Part shown: positions 7,901 through 46,526 of the stretch, one piece after another
Position numbering within the stretch: position 1 is the stretch's first letter
Layout of the letters: the number at the start of each line of letters is the position of its first letter
Virus record (IMG/VR): IMGVR_UViG_3300048631_000451
Span: 1-54,758 of that record
Direction: 5' to 3' (one strand)
Length of the DNA stretch: 54,758 nucleotides
Source of the DNA: a virus
Taxonomy: Duplodnaviria; Caudoviricetes
Notes under the pieces: generated by a model
Database searches by the model: none
What the model was told of the DNA's origin: nothing
What the model saw: only the letters and a program-made list of their open reading frames with translations
Program-made: the position numbers and the translations under genes

Positions 7901-9496
7901 TAAGTTCTCAGCGTCACGACCTGCTTTCTCTACTCGTTGTTGAGCCTCTTGCTTAGGCCTGCCATCTTCAGCAAAGATAATATCTTTTTGTTCAATGCCT
8001 TCTGGTTGCGCGGCAAGATCAGCAAAAACCTTTTCACGCGCTTGGCGATCCGCTATTTCTTGTGATGTTGGGAGTTTGCCCTGTTCTGGCTCTACAGTTC
8101 CTTCGATTGGTGCTTTTTCAATCCCTTGCCTGTTCTGAGGTTCAGCTTCTAAATAGTCGCCTTCATGCGTGTACTTAATGGGGCTAAAACGGTCCTCTGG
8201 TGTTGGTGATTTATCTAAAGCCGCTGCTTGTACTCGCTCATTGACTGACGGCGATCTATTGCCATCATTAAGTGCTTTTATTGAATCTTGGACTGGGCTA
8301 GTAAGCATATCACCATATTGCCCGGCATCTTTGTTTGACTCACCAAAGCCAGCTTGTCTCGCTGCAGTTGGTGCGTCATAATTTACATCACTAACTGCAT
8401 CATTTTCACCTAGATTAGTTGTCACATTTTCATTAGGCGAAGCCTGCTCAGGTAATGGCTCAGGTTCTGATGCTGCATTAAATAAGTCGTTATCTATACC
8501 AAACTTTTCTTTCATGGTTCGAGCAACAATTGCAGAGGCTTCAGCATCAGTAAAACCTTGCTTTTTAGCCGCTTCAAACTGTTTGACTCGTACCATATCA
8601 ATTGCTTCGTCTTGAGGTACACCTGACTCTACTAAACTATCAGCACTATTCTTCACTACCTCAGCTGTTCTTTGCTGATAGCCCAGTGCTTTTTGAGTTG
8701 CCTCAGAGCCAGTTCTAACTATACCCCCTACAACCAAACCGCCTACAAAAGCCTCGTCCAATTTTTCAAACTCATCCAGACTTTTGCCAGCCCCCCACTG
8801 CGCTAATGCTTCTTGGCCTGTCTCTGTAACGCCTTCACCAACTGCGCCTTTTAGTAGCCGTTTAGCAATACTAGGATCACGTACAGCTTCTGTTAATTCA
8901 CCTTTACCATAACGCTTTGCTGTCTCAAGAACTCCATCTCTTAAAATATCTTTACCTAGTTGGCCCATGCTAGCTTTAATGCCAAGTCGTTCAAGTAGCA
9001 TTTGCCCAGCACCTGACACAACTGCGCGTGTTGCATCTTTTTCACCTTCAGGCTGTTTTTCATAAGCTTCTTGTGCAAGGCCGCCGGCCATACCAAAAGC
9101 GCCTACACCCGTTGCAGCTCCCGCCATGTAAGGAATAGAGCCTGCGGTTAACTCGCCTGCATAGCTAGCAAAGTCACCTAGGCTATCAATGTCTTTGTAT
9201 GATTTAACTGTAGGTTCATAGCTATTTTGTTCTTCAATATTTCTGTCAATGCCTTCTTGAGCCCATTTCGATAATGAACCTCCTTGACCTATAGCTCTGC
9301 CTAATGAATTTGTTTGATCTTCTTTAGGTTTGCCAACATCTGTGAAACCTTTTACAGCTCGGTAACCTAACTCTTGTAGCTTATCAACACCTGCACCAAA
9401 TGATGCAGCTATTCCACTCTCTGTCTGTTCTTCAGCAAATGGATCTATAAATTCAATTTCTTTCTTAGTGAATGGGTCTATTATTTTATTGTTCAT
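1970..9496 (-). CDS. Large polyvalent virion/ejection protein (~2508 aa): ParB-like domain, zincin metallopeptidase/LPD1 region, second zincin motif, C-terminal LPD38-like region
   Basis: Start moved to MNNKIIDPF (9496), overlapping the upstream stop. Motifs LKPTQ..ILDGHHQW, EDFGEKLGGARKD, FRGVEFGNW, AHEWWHALD, YWSTNVEMTARSFE, LAHETIAHGGL, IPKPFELG. Last gene of the late operon, as in 933W-like phages. Confidence 0.85.
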   Translation of the reverse strand: MNNKIIDPFTKKEIEFIDPFAEEQTESGIAASFGAGVDKLQELGYRAVKGFTDVGKPKEDQTNSLGRAIGQGGSLSKWAQEGIDRNIEEQNSYEPTVKSYKDIDSLGDFASYAGELTAGSIPYMAGAATGVGAFGMAGGLAQEAYEKQPEGEKDATRAVVSGAGQMLLERLGIKASMGQLGKDILRDGVLETAKRYGKGELTEAVRDPSIAKRLLKGAVGEGVTETGQEALAQWGAGKSLDEFEKLDEAFVGGLVVGGIVRTGSEATQKALGYQQRTAEVVKNSADSLVESGVPQDEAIDMVRVKQFEAAKKQGFTDAEASAIVARTMKEKFGIDNDLFNAASEPEPLPEQASPNENVTTNLGENDAVSDVNYDAPTAARQAGFGESNKDAGQYGDMLTSPVQDSIKALNDGNRSPSVNERVQAAALDKSPTPEDRFSPIKYTHEGDYLEAEPQNRQGIEKAPIEGTVEPEQGKLPTSQEIADRQAREKVFADLAAQPEGIEQKDIIFAEDGRPKQEAQQRVEKAGRDAENLLQHKDIIFSGDQSGINVQKDGQPFKSKRDALLSKEARAARRAGDKTKAVSFDNGFGWTIKSPAQNKGKGTEPATEEATGKQADIKGEMIDSEWQAFSPQSQTKKIPRGEMPQIKAENRGAMVNFMKARGIEHKQDTVSAQSLKPTQAEFSPNKVTQAKEYEGGERSILVSNDNHILDGHHQWLAASEKNKPVKIIRLDAPIERLVPLAKEMPSTETQDNTGKSIEKDPVTLEQTNELPPILKTSKRKWLQAEAKKQGLKKDSPGYEAAMKKLDEGYESAVDKAFAEQSFETYQRFNADTPESINRQAYNELRKEFGIKDKEPPTYDKTPEQKAEPPQSGFSVPSEQERKQTSDSEVIEDFGEKLGGARKDLWGGFAESLDEKSDSIKSKPLSKALPQPDYQKMSDEGADSKALTFIAMARGSIPAKPKLSHKVSDWADYVDKVKQSINRVLKEGADPESEINLLSHFMRKGTLNGAKEALGTIANANPAILKEAAKYRIRSAKYSLFNGKEHKPAKTFYTIEKQGRRISLDNAVETLEEAQKQLAEIIKIESQSTNRQARHSKINVFRDRYTGQVYLGWKGASGVLKIQDFKTPGEAREHLSTNRDAVEEKLQKLKSTPNMRKPVNAERTGPERHSDNVTPGTFTEAFGFRGVEFGNWVEQGKRQKDLNQAYDALMDLAEAIDVPPKALSLNGQLGLAFGARGTGGKEPAAAHYESGNMVINLTKKSGSGSLAHEWWHALDNYFGRQKNSGSDFITESPYHLKGDEVRPEMAEAFKRVRNVINASDLPSRSLKLDQRKSKKYWSTNVEMTARSFETFIIDKLNKGKIKNDYLANVVSDEAWSAAESLGFEDGNTFPYPSSSEQTPINEAYQALFDTIEHKETPEGIKFFSKSNAKEKAKGVAKGDAEKTANSFIKSLNGANGINIHVLESTNDAEKLWRMSLSDSIVKGAYNDKTKTVYVIAENIESESDLKRTLAHETIAHGGLDTVIGKEAHQEFLNRIKKTKGRKAFEQYWKDANKDYWDSSDDVKAEEIFARFVENEPSKGELKYWWQALKRWLKAQLDKAGIMYREDDEITHMREMLHSIVKGFKSKNAPYTDSIGELAYSQTGNKFSQTTTADKRTAKEKLGLTESAQKTLSDKAKERTAEVMETLKSAPFWNRLNEGIFDGLAGIKQAEEAIGVTDPNKQGYVSARLAAGVSDVLHGVFNYGAPQWKDGIIQRKENTKGLLEVFSMVENDLNDWLAWMGAHRAERLKAQGRENNLSKADIEELKSLAKGKEKLFEEVRAEYNKINSAILDVAQGAGLINTQQRKSFDEEYYVPFFRDIGETDPEMDAIKRSIVEPHTRKGIAGQSAQIKELKGGKQSTKDLLENIITRQSTLIEASLKNKAMQEVVSNLDGTDFMIHEKSDDAKSMTQEELNRNSKVRVMINGEPQAYLVSDPALMRSLIQVNSSGSQNIVNKIGRSAKRFLTAGITLSPDFIAKNFIRDAAHAWMINKDGFKFAADSVKGLKKAFKEDEAYRDLIFSGAAFQGGYIHGADPEAAAQQTRRALAKKGLSENEINTYLGSLVTNGKQLLETYRNISDKVENANRLSTYEAALANNKSKRQAAFEAKDLMDYSLKGNFTTINFMVDVLPFFNARLQGMSKLVRAAKAQGDDQLVKVLSRELAMKGIKVAAFSLALAMYNDDDERYQALPDWDKDANWHFFSGDDHWRIPKPFELGVIFGTIPERLFNYAAGNQSSKDLQKSLMHAALTTMALNPTPQFILPLVETSLNRSFFRDAPIEGMADQNKQAQDRYSAFTSDTAIALGKTLGWSPKKIEHVILGYTGTMGSYVLGVSDMIARQAIGKVNAETPINRYPVIKSFYQGDTPKSNTKFANEFYDALDAANQAYGSYKRAMELGDTTRIKELLEDDGSKLRSRTGLAKVQRSISKLTKAKNAINDSRQLTSSQKREQIDKIQKKINIIYHKAYLAFKLGE

Positions 9497-10781
9497 TTGA
9501 TAAATACCCTTGCTGAATTGCAATTTGAATGGCTTGTTGTTCTGACAAATTTTTATTGGCTTCCATAAATTTAGCAATCACTCCTTTTGCATCTACACCA
9601 TCAATATGACTTGTGTATTTGACTGTTCCCGCTTGCTTTTTATTTGATTTTTCTGGAGAGCTACTTTTCCCGTAGATGCTGTCTAATTGTTCCATCTGCT
9701 TTTGAAACTGAGTCTCTACACCTGCGATCGCCTGTTCTTTCGCTTCTCCTTCTAATGGAATAGGCGCCCCTTTTCCAGATTCAACATCTGCTAACGCTTT
9801 TGCCTTGGACTCAAGCAATTGCATCTTAGCTTTTCTATATTCAGCTTCTTTGGCGTCATTAGCTTTAGATTGAGGGCTGGTTCGAATGCCCATATTCGCA
9901 TTCAATTGCATACCAAGACGATCGTAATACTCTGGCCGTTCCATCATATCTGCCATTGTCGCAGCAGAATTGATCGTTCCGATAAGTTCTTTTGGTGTGA
10001 AAGTTAGAACAGGATCATCGCTTTGTGATGTTCTGCCTTTAGTCATGGGTTTGACTTCTTTAGAGCCATTTTCATATGTAACTTCTAAAGCCAATGCAAC
10101 ACGGCCTTCTTTATCTTCAACAGGCACAAAACCAGCGAAATTAACATCTGCGATTTTTGCACCGACTAACTTATCAAAATGCCCAACAGATGAATTAATT
10201 TTCTCTTTGAAAACGTTATTGAATAACTTGATTGAGTCGGGTTCGTTTACTTTAGAAAGCTGGCCCGTTTTGATTGCTTCTCCCATAACACTGTGTAGTT
10301 GCTTAACGCTTTCACGTAAAGCGGGATCTGTATATCGTCTTGGATCTTTCGTTGGATTTCGCTTAAATACTTCTTCTAATGCTTCTGGTACTTTCCCGTA
10401 TTCACGAAAAGCTTGCCAACCTAGCGCTATATCACCTTGATCTTTTTTCCAAGTATCTTGTTGAGTTTGGTAATTTTGCTGCCATGTAGTTTCAGCAGCA
10501 CGCTGTTCTAGTGATTTATTGCGATAGTCATTCATTGACCTAAGCGTTGCTTTTTGATGTTCATTGTTTTGCTTTGCCTGCTGATTTCTAAATGCCACAT
10601 CTTCTGCACGCTCCGCTTTTCTTTGTTTGTCTAAATCAGCTAGTCGCATCTGTCCTTGCTGATATCGTTCCTCATTTCGCTTATCTAAATCACTTAAACG
10701 CTGTTCATTGAATTGACGAGACTGATGGCGCTCCATCATGTTGAAGCCCTTTAACGCGCCATCTACGAATGCACCTGCCAT
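9486..10781 (-). CDS. Putative ejection / DNA transfer (internal virion) protein
   Basis: 431 aa, N-terminal A/G-rich helix then Q/R-rich coiled coil; GGGGGAG RBS; position in the ejection module. Confidence 0.65.
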   Translation of the reverse strand: MAGAFVDGALKGFNMMERHQSRQFNEQRLSDLDKRNEERYQQGQMRLADLDKQRKAERAEDVAFRNQQAKQNNEHQKATLRSMNDYRNKSLEQRAAETTWQQNYQTQQDTWKKDQGDIALGWQAFREYGKVPEALEEVFKRNPTKDPRRYTDPALRESVKQLHSVMGEAIKTGQLSKVNEPDSIKLFNNVFKEKINSSVGHFDKLVGAKIADVNFAGFVPVEDKEGRVALALEVTYENGSKEVKPMTKGRTSQSDDPVLTFTPKELIGTINSAATMADMMERPEYYDRLGMQLNANMGIRTSPQSKANDAKEAEYRKAKMQLLESKAKALADVESGKGAPIPLEGEAKEQAIAGVETQFQKQMEQLDSIYGKSSSPEKSNKKQAGTVKYTSHIDGVDAKGVIAKFMEANKNLSEQQAIQIAIQQGYLSNEQ

Positions 10782-12604: not shown

Positions 12605-15600
12605 TTAACTAATCGTTGATCCATCTTTGAAGGTTTGGCAGATAATGCTTTGCGCCGGAGCGTTAACGGTCTGCGTTCCTTCCGTTGATGTCTTCTTGAT
12701 TTTTAATGTTACTGTCCTACTAGAGTTCGCTGGTATTGTTGCCGCTAATGTTTTGGTTACCGCAGTTCGCGTTCCATCATCACCACTAAATGCATGCGTG
12801 TATGAATCTTGTGCGCCGCTGAAACCTGATACATATAACAATACCTCAGCTTCTGGCGCCGCACTAAAACCATGACTACCAATAATCTTAATTCCACTTA
12901 CAGTAACACTTCGAGCAAATGGCAAACTTGCAATTGTAAAACTGATCACCGTGTATTCTTGGCTATGAGTTGTCGCATTTACGTTAGATGATGTTTTCAC
13001 TCTTAAATCAGTTACATCACCCTCTATGTTTGCAGCGTAAACGGTTCCATAGAAACTCGCATTATTACCAAACAAAGTGTTGATATAAGCCTGATCTATT
13101 TGTGCACTGCCAATTGCACCATTTGCAATATATGTACTAACATTTGAGCTCAGGATTTTACTAAGTCCAGCAAACGGGCCTAGCACGGGTTTTCCTGTTA
13201 TCTCGTCATAATCCAAGTAGCCTGTTAACTCATTGAAAGAGAGCGAATTTTTTGCCGCTAGAGTTCCAAGCGTAGGTTTCCCTCCCAACTCATTGTAATT
13301 TAATGAATTTTTACTTGCAAATGTCCCTAGTCCTGTCACTTTAGATGATGGTATAGCCCCTGTAGACGACATAACTACATTGCCACTACTATCTTTTATA
13401 GTGACTGATTCAAGAGTTGCGCTTTTAGCTAGCATATTACCATTAGGATCAATCGAGAAATTGTTACTTCTTGCTCCCGTACTTGGATTATAGTTTATAG
13501 ATGGAGAGCTTAACTGAGAGCCTACAACTACACGGTTTGATAGCAACTCATCGGTAACTAAGCTTTGAATAAATGCTTGGTCAATTACTGCCGTATTTAT
13601 AACTGTCTTGCCGTCAGAAACAGCAAATACAGGAGTTAAGTTAGTAGAATCTTGATCTGTTATAACAGCAAACTTCGCGCCCTTCACCGCAAATATAGGT
13701 TCCACACCATCATTTACAAGGCCAATACTAGACTGCAAGCCGTTAACATTCGTTTTAACTCCCCAAAGCGATGAAAAAACACCTTCGTTTGTCGCGACTG
13801 TTTGACTAAGTGTTTGCAGGCTAGCGCCAACGCTTGAACCGTTAGTATCTTCAATTTGTGATTTTAACGTTGTTGTTGCAGTGCTAATAGCGTTGTTTGC
13901 TGCTGTTTTTGTATAGTAGTTGTTGTATAAATCCGCGCCTATGCTGCTACCAGCCTGATCTTCTATGGTGCTTTTTAATTGCGTTGTCGCATTGCTTATA
14001 GCACTATCTGCAGCCGTTTTTGTGTAATAATTGGTTTTTAAGTCCGACACCAAGAAATCGATATCACTATCAAAACTAGACTGAAGAGCATTGATTGCTG
14101 AGCTTATGGCGCCATCTGTAGCAACTTTCGTGTAATAATCAGACACTAGCATTGCTTGGTTGCTATCGATGTTAGATTTTAAAACTTCTGATGCTTCGCT
14201 TATTGCTGCATCCACTTCCACAGTGGTTGAATAATTAACCTGCAAGTCTGATTCAAGATCATCAATAGTCGAATTTAAAAGCGTTTTAGCTTCGCTAATT
14301 ACAGCGTTCGTTTCTGCCTTTGTTAAGTAGTTAACAAATAAATCAGCACCTATGCTGTCGCCGCTTGGGTCCTCGATTACGTTTTTCAATTGCGTTGTTG
14401 CTGAGCTAATGGCGCTATCAGCTGCGGCTTTCGTGTAGTAGTTCGTTTGTAAATCAGCGCCGATACTATCACCATCAGGATCTTCCATCGCTGCACGCAA
14501 AGCAAGATCAGCACTTGCAATTGCTTCGTTTACACTAGCGCTTGTAAGGTAGTTGTTTATTAAATCTGCTTTAACGTCACCTACATCACTATCAAGCTTT
14601 AATAAGTCTTGTGCTGTTGCTTGCGCCTTTGTAGCAAACGCTGTTTGCAGTTGGTATAAGCCTGCGTTGCTTTCATCTATAGCCGCATTCAAAGCAAAAA
14701 CACTTTCAGACAGAGCAGTTTGCTCATTAGCAAGCACACGCTGATTGAGGATTAAGTCAGCCTCGGCAAATATCCGTCTTTCACCTTCTAAGTCATTAGC
14801 AAGCGCGTTTTCGATAATCGCTTGTGCACTTGGTTCAAACTCGGCTCTTAACTGTTGGCTGGTGCTTGCACTGGCTTCTACTGCGTCCGCTTTTGTTTGA
14901 AAATCATTAAAGAGCGTAGCGCCTAAGCTATCCCCGTCTGGATCTTCAATTTCACTTTTTAACGCAGTGGTTGCCTGGCTAATGGCTGTGTTGGTTTCTG
15001 CCGTAGTTGAATAATTAACTTGTAAGTCTGCATGTATTTCCTCTTTAATGCCCTGATCACCATCTTCAATATCTTGAGTTAGTGAAGATCTTAGCGCTGT
15101 TGTCGCATTTGTTATGGCACTGCTTGTTTGAGACTTCGTGAAAAAGTTTTCATATAAATCAGCATTTGCATCATCAATATTTGACTGTAACTGTGTTGTT
15201 GCATCAGCAATCGCCTGATCCGTTATTGTCTTGGTGTAGTAGTTAACTTGTAAGTCAGCGCTTATTTCATCAATAACAGTCTGGTCACCGTCAGAAACCA
15301 ATTGGCTAAGCGTTGAGTTTAAGGCTGTAGTTGCGTCGCTTATTGCGCTATCTGTCGCCACTTTTGAGTAATATGAATTAAATAAGGTAGCACCTAAACT
15401 CTCACCTTCAGGATCTTCAATTGCGGCTTTTAGTAATTGGTCCGCCTGCGTAATAGAACTATCCGTTTCTGTTTTAGTGTAATAGTTTTGGTCTAAACCT
15501 GCGTTAATTAGCCCAATATCAGTTTCAACGTCGGATCGAAGCGCCGTTACCGCAGAACTTATAGCGCTGTCAGCATTCGCTTTCGTGTAAAAATTTTCGT

Positions 15601-18600
15601 AAATATCAGCACTCACGCCATCTATTGATGATTGAAGTTGCGTGTTTAATTCACTTAAAGCGCTGTCAGTATCTGTCTTAGTATAATAATTTAACTGTAA
15701 GTTCGCTCCTACACTATTTCCATCTGGATCTTCAATTAAACTTCTTAACGCTGTCGTTGCGCTTGTTATCGCTTCGGCTATCGTTGCCGATGTGTCATAG
15801 CTGTTCAATAATGTTGCTGATACGCCGTCTATAGATGACTCTAATCGCGTAACCTCTTTAGCTGTCGCCAAAGCAGTTCCAGCAAACGTTTCTTCAAGCC
15901 TGTATAATTCTGCTTGGCTATCTCCAAATTCGGAGCGTAGTGCAAATATAGATTCAGCAATAGCCCCTTGTTCGTCAACAAGCGCTTGTTGTTTGGATAT
16001 TATTTCTGCTTCAAATAGAAGTCTTTGGCTGTTTGATTCATCATTTGCCAACGCATTTTCAATCGCAGCTAGGCTTAACGGGTCCATTTCAGCCCTGATC
16101 TGTGTATTTAACTCAGCAAGTGCACCGTCTGTATCGGTTTTGGTGTAATACTGAGTAAACAGCTCAGCGCCTAGGCTGTCACCGTTAGGGTCTTCGATTT
16201 CACTTTTTAGCGTCGTTGTGGCTTGAGCAATCGCACTATCAACAGTCACATTCGTATAGTAATTACTTTGTAAATCTGCAGTGACTGCTTGCAGTGTTTC
16301 GATATACCCATTATCAATGGCTTGGTTTAGTTCTGATCTCAACGCTGTAACACTATTTGCAATTGCTTCATCAGCACCAGCAATAGTGTAAACACTATCA
16401 AAAATACTGGCTTCTAAATCATCAATGCTGCTACTCAGTTGAAGGGACGCTTCGCTTATAGCGTTGTCTATTTCTGTTTTTGTCGAATAGTCGCTTATTA
16501 ATATAGCGCCAATGCTATTGCCTTCTGGATCTTCTATTTCACTTTTTAAAAGCTGCGTTGCCTGGCTTATAGCGCTATCTGTTTCAATGCTTGTGAAATA
16601 GTTGTTTTGTAAGTCTGCGGAGACTTCGCCTATATCGCTATCTATTGCTGAACCCAACACGGTTACTGCTGTACTTATCGCGCTGTCTGTTTGTGATTTT
16701 GTGTAGAAGTTTTGGTAAATGTCAGAACTTGTGCCGTTTATGCTTGATTGTAGTCGCGTTTCAGCTTGGCTTATGGCTTCTTCAGTATCAACCTTTGTAA
16801 GATAATTTGTTTCTAAGAATGCTTTGTTTTCATTTATCGTACTAAGTAGTTGGAACGTGCTTTGTGCATTTGCTGCCAAGCTATCTGAAAATGATTTGGT
16901 TAACTCTGTTATGCGAGCGCTACTGTCATTGAATTGCGACTCAATAACAGTTAATGACTCTGCAAGCGCTTTTGTCTCATCCGTAGTAACTTGCTGTTGC
17001 TGTAGAATGTTGGCCGTTATAACTTGTTGTTTGCTGTGTGCTTCATCATTAGCTAGCGCATTATCAATAACAGCTTGTGCCAGCGGGTCAAACCGGCTGT
17101 TCAATTCAAAAATAGAGCGCGATATAGCGGCTTCGGTATCTGCCTTCGTAAAGTAGTCAGTGAAAAGCGTTGCGCCTAAGCTGTTCCCTTCTGGATCTTC
17201 AATTTCTGACTTGAGCAATTGCGATGCTGTAGTGACTGCTTCGTTAGTTTCTGCTTTCGTAAAATAATCACTGGTTAATGTCGCACTTATCTCACCGTCA
17301 ATTTGTGATTTTAACTGTGTAGTAGCTTGGCTAATTGCACTATCAGTTTCAGTGATGGTGTAATACTGCGTGTCTAATGTGGCCTGTATGCTACTTTCAG
17401 TGTCTTGCCCTGCTATCTCAATGGCAGACTCAAGATTTGTGGTTAGTTGGCTTAGAGCGCTATCCGTGTCCGTTTTTGTGTAGTAGTTTGTTTGGAGTGA
17501 AGCCCCTAAACTATCCCCTTCTGGATCTTCAATCATTGCCTTAAGCTGAATACCATAAGCAGAGATAGCACTGTCAGTTTCGACGCTTGTATAATAATCA
17601 TTATTAATTAAAGCGCCCAAGCTATTACCGCTTGGATTTTCGATTTCAGCCTTTAGTTGCTGAGCGAATAGACTAATAGCACTATCGGTATCAACCTTCG
17701 TGTAATATTGCGTATTGAGTAGGGCCCCTACACTAGTACCTTCAGGATCTTCGATTTCTGCCTTAAGCTGATTTCTTGATGTTGCTATCGCCTGATCAGT
17801 GGTCGCTTTTGTGTAGTACGTATTTGATATGTCACCGCTTAATGATGTGCCATGTTCTTCAATTTCTACACGTATTGTTTCCGCTGCAGCAGCAATAGCT
17901 TCATTAGCTTCTGTTTTGGTTAGAAATTCGGCCTCTATCCGAGCGCTCATGTTATTAAGTTCAGACTCAAAAAGAACAAACTTAGTCGCGTTATTTTGCC
18001 AATTCTCGTCGTTAATAAGAGCCGCATCTATTAACTGTCTTGCTAAATCGTCATTACTTATTTCAATTGATTCAACTCTGTTTTTAGCTTCATCGGCGCT
18101 CTGTTTAGCATTTTCAGTTTCAACGTTTAAAGCATTGATCGAGTTGTTAATGTTAGGTATTTCTACTTGTATATTGCTAACGGCACCTTGAATACTAGGT
18201 ATATCAATTAAAAATTGGTCTACGTTCTCACGCAAAGCGGGAATATCAATTTTAAACTGGTCAATATCAGTCTTTAACGCAGGTATCTCTACAAGACTAA
18301 CTTTATCAAGATCTGATCTTAGCTCTGGAATATCAATAAAAAACTGGTCGACATTGGTGCGTAACTCAGCAATATCAATCTCAAATTGGTCAATATCGAC
18401 TTTTAGTGCGGGTATTTCATCTAAAACTATACTGTCTATTAAGTTTTCAATATCAGGTATAGAATCGATAGCAGAAGTAAGGAAGTCACCTAAATGTGAT
18501 TTTTCAATCAAGCCGCCAATTTCATCCAAGATCATAGCAGCTGATTCTTGTGTTACCACTTTCAAGCCAGCTGCGCCCTGTGTCGGTCCTTTCATATCTG

Positions 18601-19072
18601 CGACATTTACAAAGCGAACCCAATAATAATATTCAGCCCCCATACTAACTGAATCACTAAATACATCGGCTACTTCTGTCGCAATAAGTACAGCACTGCT
18701 AAATGAGTCGGTTTCACTTCGCCAAATTTCAGCATAAGCATGGCCGCGATACGTTGGAGCATCCCAAGTAAGCGCAATAAAAGTAAAGCCGCCAGTCCCA
18801 GTTAAATTCACTGGTTTATGAGGACGCTCTACGCCTCCAACTTTGATAGGTAAGCCACCTCCATTAGTGTTACCACTTGTAGCGCTTTGGCGCAGGGCTG
18901 CTATTTTCATCTGCTCAAGATTTACCAGATCTTTAACTAATAACGCTCTGTTTTGTCCATCGCCACGCTGCCCGGTAAGTAACTCTATATTTTCAGCTAA
19001 AGCGCTTTGCGTTTGTTTTCCGCTTTGTCTGCCAATGCCAGGGAAATCACTTCTTTTTAGCTTCTTTGCCAT
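12605..19072 (-). CDS. Giant tail needle / host-specificity protein (FnIII-like N-terminus, long repeat stalk, DUF1983/J-like region, C-terminal beta-rich tip)
   Basis: LTWDAPTYRGHAYAEIWRS..YYWVRFVN (FnIII-like); GLVNDG..FAV..FAV and VFAV.DGKTVIN.A.I..A.I (J/DUF1983-like). Follows the nozzle gene. Confidence 0.8.
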   Translation of the reverse strand: MAKKLKRSDFPGIGRQSGKQTQSALAENIELLTGQRGDGQNRALLVKDLVNLEQMKIAALRQSATSGNTNGGGLPIKVGGVERPHKPVNLTGTGGFTFIALTWDAPTYRGHAYAEIWRSETDSFSSAVLIATEVADVFSDSVSMGAEYYYWVRFVNVADMKGPTQGAAGLKVVTQESAAMILDEIGGLIEKSHLGDFLTSAIDSIPDIENLIDSIVLDEIPALKVDIDQFEIDIAELRTNVDQFFIDIPELRSDLDKVSLVEIPALKTDIDQFKIDIPALRENVDQFLIDIPSIQGAVSNIQVEIPNINNSINALNVETENAKQSADEAKNRVESIEISNDDLARQLIDAALINDENWQNNATKFVLFESELNNMSARIEAEFLTKTEANEAIAAAAETIRVEIEEHGTSLSGDISNTYYTKATTDQAIATSRNQLKAEIEDPEGTSVGALLNTQYYTKVDTDSAISLFAQQLKAEIENPSGNSLGALINNDYYTSVETDSAISAYGIQLKAMIEDPEGDSLGASLQTNYYTKTDTDSALSQLTTNLESAIEIAGQDTESSIQATLDTQYYTITETDSAISQATTQLKSQIDGEISATLTSDYFTKAETNEAVTTASQLLKSEIEDPEGNSLGATLFTDYFTKADTEAAISRSIFELNSRFDPLAQAVIDNALANDEAHSKQQVITANILQQQQVTTDETKALAESLTVIESQFNDSSARITELTKSFSDSLAANAQSTFQLLSTINENKAFLETNYLTKVDTEEAISQAETRLQSSINGTSSDIYQNFYTKSQTDSAISTAVTVLGSAIDSDIGEVSADLQNNYFTSIETDSAISQATQLLKSEIEDPEGNSIGAILISDYSTKTEIDNAISEASLQLSSSIDDLEASIFDSVYTIAGADEAIANSVTALRSELNQAIDNGYIETLQAVTADLQSNYYTNVTVDSAIAQATTTLKSEIEDPNGDSLGAELFTQYYTKTDTDGALAELNTQIRAEMDPLSLAAIENALANDESNSQRLLFEAEIISKQQALVDEQGAIAESIFALRSEFGDSQAELYRLEETFAGTALATAKEVTRLESSIDGVSATLLNSYDTSATIAEAITSATTALRSLIEDPDGNSVGANLQLNYYTKTDTDSALSELNTQLQSSIDGVSADIYENFYTKANADSAISSAVTALRSDVETDIGLINAGLDQNYYTKTETDSSITQADQLLKAAIEDPEGESLGATLFNSYYSKVATDSAISDATTALNSTLSQLVSDGDQTVIDEISADLQVNYYTKTITDQAIADATTQLQSNIDDANADLYENFFTKSQTSSAITNATTALRSSLTQDIEDGDQGIKEEIHADLQVNYSTTAETNTAISQATTALKSEIEDPDGDSLGATLFNDFQTKADAVEASASTSQQLRAEFEPSAQAIIENALANDLEGERRIFAEADLILNQRVLANEQTALSESVFALNAAIDESNAGLYQLQTAFATKAQATAQDLLKLDSDVGDVKADLINNYLTSASVNEAIASADLALRAAMEDPDGDSIGADLQTNYYTKAAADSAISSATTQLKNVIEDPSGDSIGADLFVNYLTKAETNAVISEAKTLLNSTIDDLESDLQVNYSTTVEVDAAISEASEVLKSNIDSNQAMLVSDYYTKVATDGAISSAINALQSSFDSDIDFLVSDLKTNYYTKTAADSAISNATTQLKSTIEDQAGSSIGADLYNNYYTKTAANNAISTATTTLKSQIEDTNGSSVGASLQTLSQTVATNEGVFSSLWGVKTNVNGLQSSIGLVNDGVEPIFAVKGAKFAVITDQDSTNLTPVFAVSDGKTVINTAVIDQAFIQSLVTDELLSNRVVVGSQLSSPSINYNPSTGARSNNFSIDPNGNMLAKSATLESVTIKDSSGNVVMSSTGAIPSSKVTGLGTFASKNSLNYNELGGKPTLGTLAAKNSLSFNELTGYLDYDEITGKPVLGPFAGLSKILSSNVSTYIANGAIGSAQIDQAYINTLFGNNASFYGTVYAANIEGDVTDLRVKTSSNVNATTHSQEYTVISFTIASLPFARSVTVSGIKIIGSHGFSAAPEAEVLLYVSGFSGAQDSYTHAFSGDDGTRTAVTKTLAATIPANSSRTVTLKIKKTSTEGTQTVNAPAQSIICQTFKDGSTIS
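13850..18050 (-). repeat. Intragenic degenerate tandem repeats (YYTKxxTDSAISxAxxxLKxxIEDPxGxSxGAxL) with a higher-order period marked by I[DE][AN]AL[AI]ND
   Basis: More than 20 degenerate copies of the YYT/YFT/YST unit in the translation; marker motif near 18020, 17055, 16050 and 14800. Confidence 0.9.
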
Positions 19073-42307: not shown

Positions 42308-43206
42308 CCGATCACCTCGTCATCATGAAGTGCTGGCATGTGTGCCACCGCTGCTTGCATTGCAGCTAGTTGGTCACCAACGTTGTTAGATTTGTGTTGG
42401 CTAAAATGACTTGGTGCTGATGGCCGGTCCTGCTCTCTCGATAACCAACTAACAATAAATCGCGGCATACCTCGCTGTGTTTTACGACGAGTGGGGTTTG
42501 CGTTACTCCACGAATACATTTCTCGTAGCTGTTGTAAAACATCAACTGCCGGATAGGTTTCAGACCATTCATCAATTTGAGTTTGAGTTATTTCGTAGCG
42601 TTCATCTTTTTTGTTGGTCGGTATCCATGCAACGGCTGGTTCAGAGCCTTGCTCTGAACAAGAATTAACTTTAGTTAATTCTTTATCTTTAGAGTTGTCT
42701 TTAAGACTTTCTTTTGTGTGTACTGTTTCAGTACTAGCATGTGTTACCGTTTCAGTACTAGTAAGTGTTACTGTTTCGGTACTGTACTGTTTTGGTTGTT
42801 TGCTAGTACTGTTTTGGTAACACTTCTTAGGTTTATGTTCTGTCCATTCACTCGTTTTTTTATTGATTTCTAGCTCACCTTGAGTTCCGCCTGTACGAAT
42901 AATCAGCTTCATTTCAATCAATTCATTCAATACTTCACTACAGCGTGCTCTTGGCATATTAGTTATCTCAGATAACTGAGAGCCACTAATACGGTCGCGC
43001 TTCTTCTGAAAGCCATACGTCTTACGTATGACTGCTAGAAACACCTTATATTGACGCTTTGTCATATCATGACTAATCGCAGCATCCAGCAATGTATTTG
43101 CTAGGCGCGTAAAGCCTTTTTCTAAACTTGCCACAGTAACGACCTCGGCCTGTTTGGTTTGCTCCTGGCTACATGGGAACTTGTAAATCTCTGCTAAATT
43201 AGCCAT
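42304..43206 (-). CDS. Replication initiator O-like
   Basis: GFTRLAN.LLDA..RQYKVFLAVIRKTYGFQKK.DRI..SQL..INK..SEW (Phage_rep_O N-domain); contains iterons. Confidence 0.92.
   Translation of the reverse strand: MANLAEIYKFPCSQEQTKQAEVVTVASLEKGFTRLANTLLDAAISHDMTKRQYKVFLAVIRKTYGFQKKRDRISGSQLSEITNMPRARCSEVLNELIEMKLIIRTGGTQGELEINKKTSEWTEHKPKKCYQNSTSKQPKQYSTETVTLTSTETVTHASTETVHTKESLKDNSKDKELTKVNSCSEQGSEPAVAWIPTNKKDERYEITQTQIDEWSETYPAVDVLQQLREMYSWSNANPTRRKTQRGMPRFIVSWLSREQDRPSAPSHFSQHKSNNVGDQLAAMQAAVAHMPALHDDEVIG
42661..42822. promoter_or_regulatory. Replication origin: iterons inside O plus an adjacent AT-rich palindrome
   Basis: Three GTG(T)TACYGTTTCRGTACT repeats at about 24-bp spacing (42718, 42741, 42765) plus degenerate GTACTGTTTTGGT copies; AGAATTAACT-tt-AGTTAATTCT at 42661-42682. 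Confidence 0.85.
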
Positions 43207-43227
43207 AATTACTCCTGTTATTACTCA

Positions 43228-43268
43228 ACCCGCTATCGTGCCGACCAAAGCTGATGCGGGTTTTGTTT
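43228..43268 (+). terminator. Hairpin with T-tract on the + strand just upstream of O
   Basis: AACCCGC...GCGGGTTTTGTTT. Confidence 0.45.
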
Positions 43269-43498
43269 TATCTGCGAGTTACATCAGCCTTTGCTGTAGC
43301 TCGCGCCTTAAATTCTTTTGCTTTATTCAGTTTTCTTCTTCCAATAACCACGCAACCAATTAAGTTAATTACAAAAGCCATCACAGCTAACATGGCTAAT
43401 AAATCAGAAATTGTTTCATGTTTACTGGCGAGAGTACTTATCACCATCAGCAGCACCCCAATGCTTATAGAGTGACGAACTATAAAGCTCATACTCAA
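43268..43498 (-). CDS. Small two-TM membrane protein
   Basis: Two hydrophobic segments and a basic tail; overlaps the stop of the dksA-like gene. Confidence 0.6.
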   Translation of the reverse strand: MSMSFIVRHSISIGVLLMVISTLASKHETISDLLAMLAVMAFVINLIGCVVIGRRKLNKAKEFKARATAKADVTRR

Positions 43499-43704
43499 CG
43501 CCTAAACTGGCGTCTTTGTAATTCTTGAAGTTCAGCGCATCCAATACACAAATTCGTTTTAACTGCCTTTCTACGCTCTTCAGGAATATCAGCACCGCAC
43601 TCAACACAATCTAATGACTCTTGAATATCTTCTTGTTTTAAGTTCGCTAACTGTCTTTCTTGTTCTCGCTCTATTTCAATTTGAGCACTATCAGCTGCAT
43701 CCAT
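43495..43704 (-). CDS. TraR/DksA C4 zinc-finger protein
   Basis: MDAADSAQ (DxxDxA) and CVECGADIPEERR..LCIGC; GGAG RBS. Confidence 0.92.
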   Translation of the reverse strand: MDAADSAQIEIEREQERQLANLKQEDIQESLDCVECGADIPEERRKAVKTNLCIGCAELQELQRRQFRR

Positions 43705-43754
43705 TACGACTCCATTAACTACTTGAATAAGTTTTAAAAAACACACATTCTGTA

Positions 43755-43942
43755 TGTTCGCTATAGGCGGTAGCGACAGGGAGAGTTAGTCTATTGGCTT
43801 GCACAGACCGTTGCCCTAGACGTGATTAGGGACTAATAGACTCCCCCTCCCTTGCCTCCGAGTTTGCAAGGCTCGGAACTCGTCGGCCAAATTTTCATTG
43901 GTCGCTGAGCGCTCGGCGACTTGTGATGGAGTGAGATTTCTC
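43755..43942 (+). ncRNA. Highly structured RNA leader (about 5 stems) upstream of a small peptide ORF
   Basis: Stems TCGCTA/TAGCGA; GGGAG..AGTCTATTGG/CTAATAGACT..CTCCC enclosing CCCTAG/TTAGGG; CCGAGTTT/AGGCTCGG; CGGCCAA/TTGGTCG; GTCGCTGA/TCGGCGAC. Non-Watson-Crick positions are mostly G-U on the + strand. Confidence 0.6.
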
Positions 43943-44044
43943 ATGAAGTTTCAAGTCTCTGTTAAGATCACTGTAGATATCTCTAAAATTATCTATGCAT
44001 TAGCATCGATGGTTTTAGCGCTATACACTGCAGGGCTCTTATAA
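43943..44044 (+). CDS. 33-aa hydrophobic peptide MKFQVSVKITVDISKIIYALASMVLALYTAGLL (type I toxin-like; not in the ORF track)
   Basis: GGAG RBS at 43928-43931, single TM helix, strong hairpin 6 nt after the stop codon. Confidence 0.65.
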   Translation: MKFQVSVKITVDISKIIYALASMVLALYTAGLL

Positions 44045-44076
44045 GAAAGTCCTAGCCACCCACAACGGTGGCTAGG
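44045..44076. terminator. Perfect 10-bp hairpin; terminator-like (tR-like) on the minus strand
   Basis: CCTAGCCACC-cacaac-GGTGGCTAGG, followed by ACTTTCTT on the minus strand. Confidence 0.7.
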
Positions 44077-44198
44077 CACCCTCACCATTGCTAACCTTTC
44101 ACAGTTAACTCATCACAAACTGCCAATTTTAAAGCGCCCTTTTGTCTGCTAGCATGCAAGTGCGAATTACAAAAACCAGACACACAAAAGGACTAAAC

Positions 44199-44390
44199 AT
44201 GCCAAATATTGATCACTTACCACCTGTGCTCTGCCCGGTGTGCAAAGCAAAATTCAATAAACCGCCTAGTTGGTTTCATGACCAATCGGTGTACATTTGT
44301 CCCTGTGGGTATGAAGTCCCAATAGATAATGCGATCAAGGCGCACTTCGCCATGCTCGCAAAACAGATCTCGGAATTCCCTAAGTTTTGA
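44199..44390 (+). CDS. 63-aa zinc-ribbon protein antisense to the PR operon
   Basis: AAAGGA RBS; CPVC..W..CPCG motif; overlaps a minus-strand ORF. Confidence 0.55.
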   Translation: MPNIDHLPPVLCPVCKAKFNKPPSWFHDQSVYICPCGYEVPIDNAIKAHFAMLAKQISEFPKF

Positions 44391-44501
44391 TTCAGGCCAT
44401 TCAGCCCATTTGAGCTCCGTTGTAAAAATGGGTTTATCAACCAGATGCAACCAAGGTGGCGGCGTATCTTCATTAATAAAACTCATGAGCTCGTCACTCA
44501 T
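44217..44501 (-). CDS. Hypothetical protein following cII
   Basis: ATG 2 nt after the cII stop; antiparallel overlap with the zinc-ribbon ORF makes this call uncertain. Confidence 0.45.
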   Translation of the reverse strand: MSDELMSFINEDTPPPWLHLVDKPIFTTELKWAEWPESKLREFRDLFCEHGEVRLDRIIYWDFIPTGTNVHRLVMKPTRRFIEFCFAHRAEHRW

Positions 44502-44503
44502 AT

Positions 44504-45031
44504 TCAAGCCACCTTCAATGATGTAGCTTTCACTGAAGCCGGTTCATTTGGATCAGGACGAACCATTTGCTCGAGCTCAGCTGTCACATGCAAAATAGCT
44601 GTAATAGCTTGTTGTGCTCGCTTTTGAATAACATCGAAATTTGATTCGGTAATAACGCCATCAGAACGTGAAGTGTGAACAGCTTTGGCAAAGTCACCAC
44701 ATGCGGCTTGTAACTGAAGTATTTGGTCTGCTAGTTCTTCATCTGATAAACCAACATCAGGCAAATCAACAACTGTTTTGCCTACGCTAAATGCCCAGGC
44801 TTCTAGTGAACGGTAGTCTTGTGTTAGGTCTGACATTGCAATAATTTGTCGATACCCAAGAATGTGTGTATCGCAACTATCATCTAGCTTACTTCTTAAA
44901 ACGGTTGGGTTTACGCCCATCTGCCTAGCAAGCTCAGCAATGTTGTAGTCATTTTTAAAACTTTCTGCTGCTGCCATTGGGCATCGTGTAACAGGCGCAT
45001 GAGCACACGTACCTTTCTTTGATAAAAGCAT
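44504..45031 (-). CDS. cII: Phage regulatory protein CII (186/CP76-like)
   Basis: N..ELA.QMG.NPTVLRSKL..H.L HTH; DGVIT..E C-terminal motif; follows cro. Confidence 0.85.
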   Translation of the reverse strand: MLLSKKGTCAHAPVTRCPMAAAESFKNDYNIAELARQMGVNPTVLRSKLDDSCDTHILGYRQIIAMSDLTQDYRSLEAWAFSVGKTVVDLPDVGLSDEELADQILQLQAACGDFAKAVHTSRSDGVITESNFDVIQKRAQQAITAILHVTAELEQMVRPDPNEPASVKATSLKVA

Positions 45032-45043
45032 TTATATTATTCC

Positions 45044-45256
45044 CTAAGCTGCTGACTGAGGCTGGTCATTCTCATAAAGAGACAGATCAACTTTAAGTGC
45101 ACCCTTAGTGATCATTTGAAGTTCAAAAGCTCGACCGCGAGGAACTCGCCCGTCATTTGACCAATGAGTTATTGACCCTTTAGTTAGAGGTGGAGTAAAA
45201 GCTTGGGCTAATTTTGACTTGCCACCAAAATATGAAACTGCATCACTCGTTTTCAT
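45044..45256 (-). CDS. cro: Cro-like repressor
   Basis: MKTSDAVSYFGGKSKLA..W..VP..RAFELQ.IT.GALK; AGGAGG RBS; divergent from cI. Confidence 0.93.
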   Translation of the reverse strand: MKTSDAVSYFGGKSKLAQAFTPPLTKGSITHWSNDGRVPRGRAFELQMITKGALKVDLSLYENDQPQSAA

Positions 45257-45283
45257 GTGATCCTCCTAATTAATTTAATTGGG

Positions 45284-45358
45284 AGTATAGTTTTATGAAC
45301 CATTTTAAGTCAAGTTAAATGAACCAACAAAATAGTAATGTGTTTAGATAACTATACT
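45284..45358. promoter_or_regulatory. OR region: three 16-bp operators with PR and PRM
   Basis: GTATAGTTTTATGAAC (45285-45300), GTCAAGTTAAATGAAC (45309-45324), GTTTAGATAACTATAC (45342-45357). PR on the minus strand is TTGACT-N18-TATACT; PRM -10 TATACT at 45353-45358. Confidence 0.85.
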
Positions 45359-45372
45359 ATCAGGTTGTTAAT

Positions 45373-46017
45373 ATGACATTTCAAGAACGCTTAATTGAGC
45401 AAATGTCCGCCGCTGACATAAAAGCAGTTGAGATAGCACGAGCGCTAAAAATATCTAAGGGAACTGTCAGTCAATGGTGTACCGGGTTAAACAAACCGCG
45501 TGGCGAAAACGCAGTTAAATTGGCTAAAGTTTTAAGATGTAACGTGTCTTGGCTTATGGAAGGAAAAGGGTCTCCTAATAAAAATGTAGAATTAGAATTA
45601 GGCCCCGACTTAAGAGGTAAAGCACCGCTAATCTCATGGGTTCAAGCGGGAAAATGGAAAGAGATTGATAGGGAAAGTTTGCAGCAAGCCTCTGATATAA
45701 CTTTTTATCAACATACAGCTAGTGTTAGCGATCAAGCCTTTGCTCTACGAGTCAAAGGTGACAGTATGACCAGCTTTACAGGTGGAAAATCAATACCCGA
45801 AGGCTCTGTTATCATTGTTGATCCAAATATGCAGGCAGAGCATGGGAAAGTAGTTGTGGCTCGCCTGGAAGAAAGTGACGAAGCAACGTTAAAGCAGCTA
45901 GTTTTAGACGGTGGATCTAAATACTTGAAACCATTTAACAACAGCTATCCGACGATGCCTATTAACGGAAACTGCACAATAATCGGAGTTGTTAAGCAAG
46001 TAATCCAAGATTTTTAA
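45373..46017 (+). CDS. cI: CI repressor (HTH plus S24 autopeptidase)
   Basis: N-terminal HTH, PLISWVQAG cleavage site, VKGDSM Ser and ATLK Lys. Confidence 0.96.
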   Translation: MTFQERLIEQMSAADIKAVEIARALKISKGTVSQWCTGLNKPRGENAVKLAKVLRCNVSWLMEGKGSPNKNVELELGPDLRGKAPLISWVQAGKWKEIDRESLQQASDITFYQHTASVSDQAFALRVKGDSMTSFTGGKSIPEGSVIIVDPNMQAEHGKVVVARLEESDEATLKQLVLDGGSKYLKPFNNSYPTMPINGNCTIIGVVKQVIQDF

Positions 46018-46097: not shown

Positions 46098-46526
46098 TTA
46101 ATAGCAGTTTCCTCTCGAATCACAAATAATTATTTTAATCTCTCCTGTCTCTGCATTGTACGAGTCATACGTCGTGTTTCCAGAAGAGTCAGTAAAACTA
46201 TTCCACGTACTGCCGTTATCGCTAGATCCTAGTGTTTGACTGGTACTTCCTGAATCATAAGTGCTCGAGTTCCAGTAAGAGCCTTTGCTACTATAGCCCT
46301 GTGTTTGACTTACACTTCCACTTCTATATGTGTTACTGCCCCATGTCGTGCCTGTATCGCTATTGTAACCACTCGTAACTGATGACGTTCCATAATCGGA
46401 CGTAATATAACTATTACCACTGTCATAGTCATAGCAGTAAGTTGTATCGCCTACAGTTGTGCATTGAGCAGCAACCGAAGATGTGAACGCTATAGACACT
46501 AATATTGATAACGATTTTAAAAACAT
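46098..46526 (-). CDS. Secreted Ser/Thr/Gly/Tyr-rich protein in the immunity region
   Basis: Signal peptide ending VAA-Q; internal G..W.S.TY.SG repeats; Cys pairs at both ends; AAGGGA RBS. Confidence 0.8.
   Translation of the reverse strand: MFLKSLSILVSIAFTSSVAAQCTTVGDTTYCYDYDSGNSYITSDYGTSSVTSGYNSDTGTTWGSNTYRSGSVSQTQGYSSKGSYWNSSTYDSGSTSQTLGSSDNGSTWNSFTDSSGNTTYDSYNAETGEIKIIICDSRGNCY

Follow-up and report, generated by a model that had tools for sequence, protein, structure and literature searches.

A 412-base cassette in the PR operon of a lambdoid, marine Pseudoalteromonas prophage is a discrete accessory insert of patchy distribution, and no other region of the phage is as strongly structured. 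Our tentative reading, which we hold to be possible rather than probable, is that it represents an orphan type I toxin-antitoxin-like moron, with a locked plus-strand mRNA, a 33-aa membrane peptide and, as antagonist, a minus-strand RNA that would end at 44041. The window, i.e., the whole stretch of DNA that was analysed, is a complete IMG/VR virus record of 54,758 bp, for which the nearest host record is a Pseudoalteromonas shioyasakiensis genome (L008). Coordinates of the features are collected in Table 1.

The region around the cassette consists of lambdoid immunity and replication genes. Nearly all large frames between 20 and 45256 are on the minus strand. The CII gene is followed by a 94-aa frame and then by a gap, past which the minus-strand order is the DksA/TraR-like zinc-finger gene, a 76-aa membrane protein, the O-like initiator and a P-like loader. 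Given the position of the PR promoter and the minus-strand frames on both flanks, the cassette lies against the PR operon, and a preliminary description of this DNA was correct in calling the locus antisense to that operon. The Shine-Dalgarno (SD) sequence of the DksA-like gene is supplied by the cassette. A mechanical ORF list starts this gene at GTG 43746 (83 aa); relatives place the true start at ATG 43704. Elsewhere in the phage, a 142-aa frame adjoining the repressor gene (46098-46526, minus strand) has a signal-like N-terminus and Ser/Thr/Gly/Tyr-rich repeats and may be a lysogenic-conversion moron, and the late region contains two huge minus-strand frames, 1970-9577 and 12605-19072 (2535 and 2155 aa).

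Table 1. Features of the cassette and its surroundings, with positions in the window.
Feature	Position	Strand	Remarks
O-like initiator	43206-42304	-	
DksA/TraR-like zinc-finger gene	43495-43704	-	start ATG 43704, 69 aa; SD GGAG 43710-13 within cassette
Accessory cassette (indel), 412 bases	43705 to ~44116		blastn and sequence comparison; between DksA/TraR-like gene and conserved 85-bp element
Best plus-strand promoter candidate, weak, TTGAAT-17-CATTCT	43723-43751	+	score 5.5, versus 12.0 for PR
GC-rich leader, four stems	43758-43914	+	fold prediction
Palindromic hairpin	43901-43920		alternative to stem 43884-90/43898-43904 and to the long-range helix
5' arm of long-range helix	43915-43932	+	includes SD GGAG 43928-31; fold prediction
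33-aa frame MKFQVSVKITVDISKIIYALASMVLALYTAGLL	43943-44044	+	start codon in hairpin loop; no homologues or family matches
Intrinsic-terminator-like site	44041-44076	-	10-bp stem, 7 G-C pairs, loop of 6, then ACTTTCTTAT
3' arm of long-range helix (anti-SD)	44108-44124	+	fold prediction
Promoter-like site ATGCTA-18-TAAAAT	44155-44126	-	score 5.1, versus 12.0 for PR; only one found for antisense RNA
Conserved ~85-bp element GCGCCCTTTTGTCTGCTAGCATGCAAGTGCGAATTAC...AAAAGGACTAAACATG, internal palindrome	44131-44201	+	beside DksA-like gene in 11 IMG/VR contigs (L017-L028)
Extended -10 of element, TGcTAGCAT	44147-55	+	lenient scan score 7.3
RBS of element, AAAAGGAC	44186-93	+	precedes plus-strand frame
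63-aa CPxC...CPC zinc-ribbon frame	44199-44390	+	strong RBS; fully overlapped by 94-aa frame
94-aa frame	44501-44217	-	own RBS; between CII and gap
CP76-type CII	45031-44504	-	
Cro	45256-45044	-	
PR promoter TTGACT-18-TATACT	45313-45284	-	strong; position-weight scan score 12.0
CI-type repressor	45373-46017	+	

Relatives without the cassette have 19 bp at its site, so that the DksA start codon is 19 bp from the conserved element. The right edge is blurred by the sequence AAACTG at 44117-44122, which is common to both forms. The cassette is carried by the window, by the prophage of genome G001 (L003/L008/L010/L027), by G068 (L011) and, in a deleted form, by the metagenome contig L009. When 43705-44116 was compared by blastn with five loci collected via the neighbouring 96-aa frame (the 94-aa frame counted from a TTG start), one locus matched (L003, 98%). 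An exact scan for the flanking element gave 12 loci on 11 IMG/VR contigs; 11 loci were analysed, L025 being left out as it is on the same contig as L024, and the cassette was present in one (L027) and absent from the other 10. DNA searches found the cassette in two of 140 Pseudoalteromonas species genomes, where two further matches of 23-27 nt (E 0.006-0.009) were treated as chance, and, in a family sample of 401 genomes, only in G001 itself. Used as query, a 48-aa TTG-start frame recovered one near-identical contig each in IMG/VR and GTDB and, from a metagenome, one contig with a deletion. In phage and plasmid collections blastn found no match to 43700-44200, and exact-pattern scans of IMG/VR with two leader stretches gave no locus for one and, for the other, a single locus on an already known contig. 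Two other identities were considered and rejected. The cassette is not a MITE or host repeat, as there is one match in G001 and only two prophage copies exist among the 140 genus genomes, and it is not a retron noncoding RNA, as no match to the reverse transcriptase family RVT_1 was found anywhere in the phage.

The four cassette copies are 98-99% identical and have about nine variable sites, too few for covariation or dN/dS. No diverged homologues of the cassette, the RNA or the frame were found in the genus, family-sample, IMG/VR, GTDB and protein searches. The collection of homologues and the covariance model envisaged in the preliminary description therefore came down to these four copies and to a model (R1, built on 43758-43942) that, run over the genus, recovered only the two known genomes. 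The DksA allele linked to the cassette is only 70-81% identical to the alleles of cassette-less relatives; since a distinct allele accompanies the cassette, arrival may have been by module exchange rather than by transposition. That same allele is part of the case that the cassette is a non-functional relic, brought in by recombination from another phage with a different DksA allele and with hairpins that are the leftovers of a decayed element. Such a relic would sit well with the tiny distribution, with copies too alike to show selection, and with the fact that one copy is already damaged: L009 lacks window positions 43973-44088, a 116-bp deletion by which codons 11-33 of the frame are lost along with the hairpin. 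We nevertheless consider a relic most unlikely, as the cassette includes the most structured segment of the whole phage (z -8.3, see below), is not a repeat in the host or the genus, and has a 102-nt frame that is identical in the three intact copies, though only about two changes would be expected. Ahead of its deletion, L009 has one synonymous change in the frame.

In all six loci examined (6 of the 11 with the element), a plus-strand frame, 63-109 aa long, comes directly behind the AAAAGGAC of the conserved element beside the cassette. Each is the zinc-ribbon frame or belongs to a diverse family that appears winged-helix-like from weak Pfam hints only. Because plus-strand genes recur behind the element, the site does host genes running against PR, which makes plus-strand transcription at this site plausible. 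Where the zinc-ribbon and 94-aa frames overlap, their third codon positions coincide, and relative to L004 each frame has 8 codons with synonymous and 9 with non-synonymous differences. Neither frame is interrupted in the relatives checked; AlphaFold, run on single sequences, gave the zinc ribbon a pLDDT of 67.8 and the 94-aa frame one of 56.8, and the protein database contains only the minus-strand (94-aa) product of the pair. In L003, at 2875-3630, and also in L002, L005, L006 and L009, a 757-bp insert lies between two diverged copies of the 85-bp element and contains a 105-aa frame directed against PR and, convergent to it, a 133-aa frame in the PR direction. Pfam and PADLOC searches with the relatives' 105-aa and 133-aa proteins gave nothing above threshold. 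To judge by this arrangement, the repeated elements look like recombination points for module swapping.

The GC content is 52-53% in 43750-43950, versus 34-44% in the flanks. The preliminary description had proposed a GC-rich leader with consecutive stems, and the predicted plus-strand fold has four: 43758-64/43770-76, a long hairpin at 43778-43852, 43857-65/43869-77, and 43879-90/43898-43909. Its proposal that two leader stems exclude one another through 43901-43904 also held up, the pair being the palindromic hairpin and the stem 43884-90/43898-43904; the palindrome formed in a 201-nt fold and not in the 391-nt fold. The excess of G-U pairs that it had noted on the plus strand did not survive examination: 9 of 51 leader pairs are G-U, and 36 of 200 shuffles had at least as many, so that the excess is not significant and G-U asymmetry was dropped as a strand marker. 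Stability is a different matter. The 391-nt plus strand has a z-score of -5.7, with none of 100 shuffles as stable, versus -3.9 for the minus strand. For 43915-44127 the plus-strand z-score is -8.26, with none of 200 shuffles as stable, versus -3.92 for the minus strand. When folding energy was regressed on GC for 341 windows on both strands, this plus-strand segment was the most extreme 213-nt window of the phage, none of the 682 strand-windows being as stable, and the two most extreme windows sampled both overlap the cassette. The leader alone (43758-43914) departs less from chance than the preliminary description had supposed, with z-scores of -2.2 (plus) and -2.4 (minus).

A search of Rfam with 42500-45500, on both strands and at E<=10, gave nothing inside 43705-44130; four weak matches outside the cassette were far below gathering scores, and the Rfam family that might have accounted for the fold, for which a scan had been suggested, did not emerge. 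A tRNA/tmRNA scan found none. Two smaller sequence features may be mentioned. A 19-nt direct repeat, 74% identical, joins the leader (43852-43870, TTGCCTCCGAGTTTGCAAG) and the 85-bp element (44142-44160, TTGTCTGCTAGCATGCAAG); both copies fit TTGY-N8-WTGCAAG and could represent a shared protein-binding site, or chance. In L009, at 3057-3080 (window 44090-44109), a small hairpin that is imperfect in the window has become, through two substitutions, a perfect 7-bp stem (GTTAACC/GGTTAAC), and G068 has another base again at the first of these two sites.

In the minimum-free-energy fold 43915-32 is paired with 44108-24, and this long-range helix includes the GGAG sequence, which sits 11 nt before the ATG at 43943. 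The preliminary description had predicted that two downstream segments could pair with this ribosome-binding region. For one of the two, 44108-24, the helix bears out that prediction as far as the fold goes, but the duplexes themselves are not rare: that of the SD region with 44104-44127 (-19.2 kcal/mol) is equalled or beaten by 0.43% of 18,218 phage windows, and that with 44076-44099 (-14.4) is matched by 6.4% of them. The individual anti-SD pairings are therefore within chance. In partition-function folds of the full-length RNA the SD pairing probability is 0.67-0.74, and cutting the 3' end at 44079 or 44100 reduces it to 0.05-0.30 for three of the four SD bases. Two of the approximately nine variable sites are within the long-range helix, and both weaken it: the G001 copy has AGAG for GGAG, and three of the four copies have A for T at 44110, with the loss of one pair.

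The GGAG sequence, the 33-aa frame and its hydrophobic stretch are present as first described. Nearly the whole frame is inside an imperfect hairpin of about 35 bp (43958-44046), and the AUG is in the loop of a separate small hairpin. The peptide has an 18-residue hydrophobic C-terminus (Kyte-Doolittle about 1.94-1.97) and no cysteines. An SD core lies 5-13 nt upstream of 16 of the 328 ATG frames of 25-60 aa that the phage has in its six reading frames, and the 33-aa frame alone combines an SD core with a hydrophobic 17-mer, by thresholds (17-residue Kyte-Doolittle >=1.9, SD at 5-13 nt) that were chosen after the frame had been seen. We regard the frame as credible. A frame of 42 aa on the minus strand (43816-43944) was rejected as coding, as a change in the length of a C-run breaks it in the other three copies.

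Database searches with the peptide gave no relatives. Phmmer against 1.84 billion representative proteins found none at E<=0.001, so that coding conservation, which the preliminary description had hoped to trace with the peptide, found no homologue to rest on; a protein search with the 48-aa TTG-start frame gave no candidate. Pfam had no families at E<=0.01 and NCBIfam none at E<=10, PHROG and PADLOC gave none, and in the atlas the best score was 0.82, which is noise level, with no useful neighbour. Type I families are represented in Pfam and NCBIfam by, among others, Hok_Gef, Ldr, Ibs, TisB and Fst, and in Rfam by, among others, Sok, IstR and Sib. No significant match to a model of a known type I toxin or antitoxin family was found in Pfam, NCBIfam or Rfam.

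The rare frame features and extreme structure would also suit a plus-strand moron of another kind, one whose product is a small membrane protein or a structured noncoding RNA but not a toxin. Such a moron could be, for example, an exclusion or regulatory factor, co-expressed with the plus-strand gene that follows the 85-bp element. Plus-strand genes against PR are frequent at this site, the element has its extended -10 on the plus strand, and no plus-strand terminator separates the cassette from the next gene. We rate this alternative as unlikely, in that there is no notable promoter upstream of the leader, no homologue of the peptide or the RNA was found, and an ordinary gene for a small protein would not usually have its SD and AUG so heavily buried.

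A consensus scan found no promoter at threshold upstream of either proposed transcript. A more lenient scan, using our own position weights, gave the two weak candidates of Table 1 as well as a promoter-like site inside the 33-aa frame (score 7.5, versus 12.0 for PR). A LexA box near 43750 was dropped, as only a CTGT half-site was seen by eye. The perfect 10-bp hairpin of the preliminary description is indeed present (arms 44051-60/44067-76), but a U-tract follows it on the minus strand only, and the site has the form of an intrinsic terminator on that strand only. On the plus strand there is no terminator after the hairpin, and none between the cassette and the neighbouring plus-strand gene. 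A distance of 1-3 nt separates the end of the minus-strand terminator from the stop codon of the 33-aa frame. In G068 the hairpin loop has a 1-nt insertion, and the stem is intact.

The direction of this terminator raises the main rival explanation, namely that the minus strand is the functional one. The cassette would then be a structured leader of the DksA-O-P genes in the PR transcript that opens with an intrinsic terminator, downstream expression would depend on antitermination or leak-through, and the plus-strand frame would be incidental. Only the minus strand has a strong known promoter, PR, and all of the flanking genes are on that strand, including the DksA-like gene that takes its SD from the cassette. 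The whole cassette (43705-44127) folds slightly better on the minus strand (-142.3, versus -138.9 for the plus strand), and the long hairpin at 43778-43852 is more stable there (43776-43854, z -3.7 versus -2.6). On the other hand, the same operon runs without the cassette in 10 of the 11 related contigs, so the cassette is not needed for operon function; the terminator is lost in L009; and the 3' domain is far more unusual on the plus strand (z -8.3 versus -3.9). A leader on the minus strand would also leave the rare combination of an SD and a hydrophobic frame as a coincidence. On balance we are doubtful of a minus-strand leader.

We return to the type I toxin-antitoxin-like module, in which transcription of both strands is inferred, as are translation, toxicity and control by antisense RNA. 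Its plus-strand RNA, about 370 nt long and running against the PR operon, would encode the 33-residue membrane peptide. In the predicted full-length fold, the long-range helix would close the 3' domain and bury the SD, with the start codon in its small hairpin, so that the message could be translated only after trimming of its 3' end or refolding. The antagonist would be an antisense RNA from the minus strand, either short and locally transcribed or formed by read-through from PR; ending at the terminator 44076-44041, it would base-pair with the 3' part of the mRNA, which would be silenced or destroyed. In favor of this module are the accessory nature of the cassette, the z-score of the 3' domain (-8.26), the predicted freeing of the SD by 3' cuts, the rare frame and the terminator beside its stop codon. 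Against it, both promoter candidates are weak (5.5 on the plus and 5.1 on the minus strand, versus 12.0 for PR), and the strand assignment is weak, since the leader folds equally well on both strands and the long hairpin folds better on the minus strand. Further, L009 is without most of the frame, and both variable sites in the long-range helix weaken it, one of them by making the SD of the G001 copy AGAG.

As outlined for T1TAdb, type I systems have an mRNA of 150-400 nt, a protein of 20-60 aa, typically hydrophobic, and an antisense RNA of 60-200 nt (PMC8594479). The 33-aa frame is in the size range of these proteins and is hydrophobic. The size of the cassette and its fold fit the mRNA, for which the promoter candidate is weak (5.5) and there is no plus-strand terminator. 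For the antisense RNA there are the minus-strand terminator at 44076-44041 and the promoter-like site with a score of 5.1, with no Rfam antitoxin match. Among the papers listed for type I toxin-antitoxin systems of Pseudoalteromonas prophages, none describes such a locus, to judge by titles and abstracts.

Several known systems resemble the cassette in part. The oop RNA of λ is a 77-nt noncoding antisense RNA that lies between cII and the replication genes and runs against the PR transcript. The cassette is likewise a small unit between cII and the replication genes, against PR, but its terminator points with PR and the unit is about 400 nt long with a frame. Among prophage type I systems, bsrG/SR4 and txpA/RatA of Bacillus subtilis have a convergent toxin mRNA and antisense RNA that overlap at their 3' ends. 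The cassette is also prophage-borne, and a minus-strand RNA ending at 44041 would give such a 3' overlap; it differs in belonging to another phylum, in having no evident homology to these systems and no bidirectional terminator, and in that an antisense promoter is not evident. The hok/Sok system, which is found on mobile elements, has an mRNA of about 400 nt that is closed by 5'-3' pairing and has alternative leader stems. The cassette shares the predicted 5'-3' closing helix, the alternative leader stems and the location on a mobile element. Unlike hok/Sok, it has no Hok_Gef domain, no Sok match and no overlapping leader frame that we could identify, and its peptide is of 33 aa without cysteines.

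A further parallel is aapA1/IsoA1 of Helicobacter pylori. In the account of aapA1, for which 3' end processing is named alongside that of Hok, the full-length fold blocks translation and 3' processing unmasks the SD (PMC5416894). Like the cassette in our reading, aapA1/IsoA1 has a peptide of about 30 aa, a translation-blocking full-length fold and an antitoxin from the opposite strand (PMC5416894). In the cassette, too, removal of the 3' end frees the SD, in silico only. The two are not related by sequence or family, and the candidate antisense RNA of the cassette would overlap the 3' end rather than the 5' part; moreover, transcript, processing and antitoxin are proposals in the case of the cassette.

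Should the cassette prove to be only a terminator and leader, or a relic, its interest would be local, for the annotation of this phage group. A more ambitious proposal, in which the cassette is the first of a new family of Hok-style, fold-back-regulated toxin modules of marine phages, seems to us improbable. On this proposal a translationally locked mRNA, expressed in the lysogen, would lie against the PR operon, and the antidote would be the early transcript of the phage itself or else a short RNA that ends at the shared hairpin. Release of the peptide would then be tied to the state of the lytic switch, and would, for example, kill cells in which early transcription had aborted or from which the prophage had been lost. 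If instead the more limited reading is right, and RNA structure together with an antisense transcript restrains a toxin, the cassette would be a type I system without a sequence relative. It would lie among the early-operon genes of a temperate marine phage, where related phages have other genes against PR. It would extend type I systems to prophages of the Alteromonas group and provide a compact model for the coupling of toxin control to the lysis-lysogeny switch.
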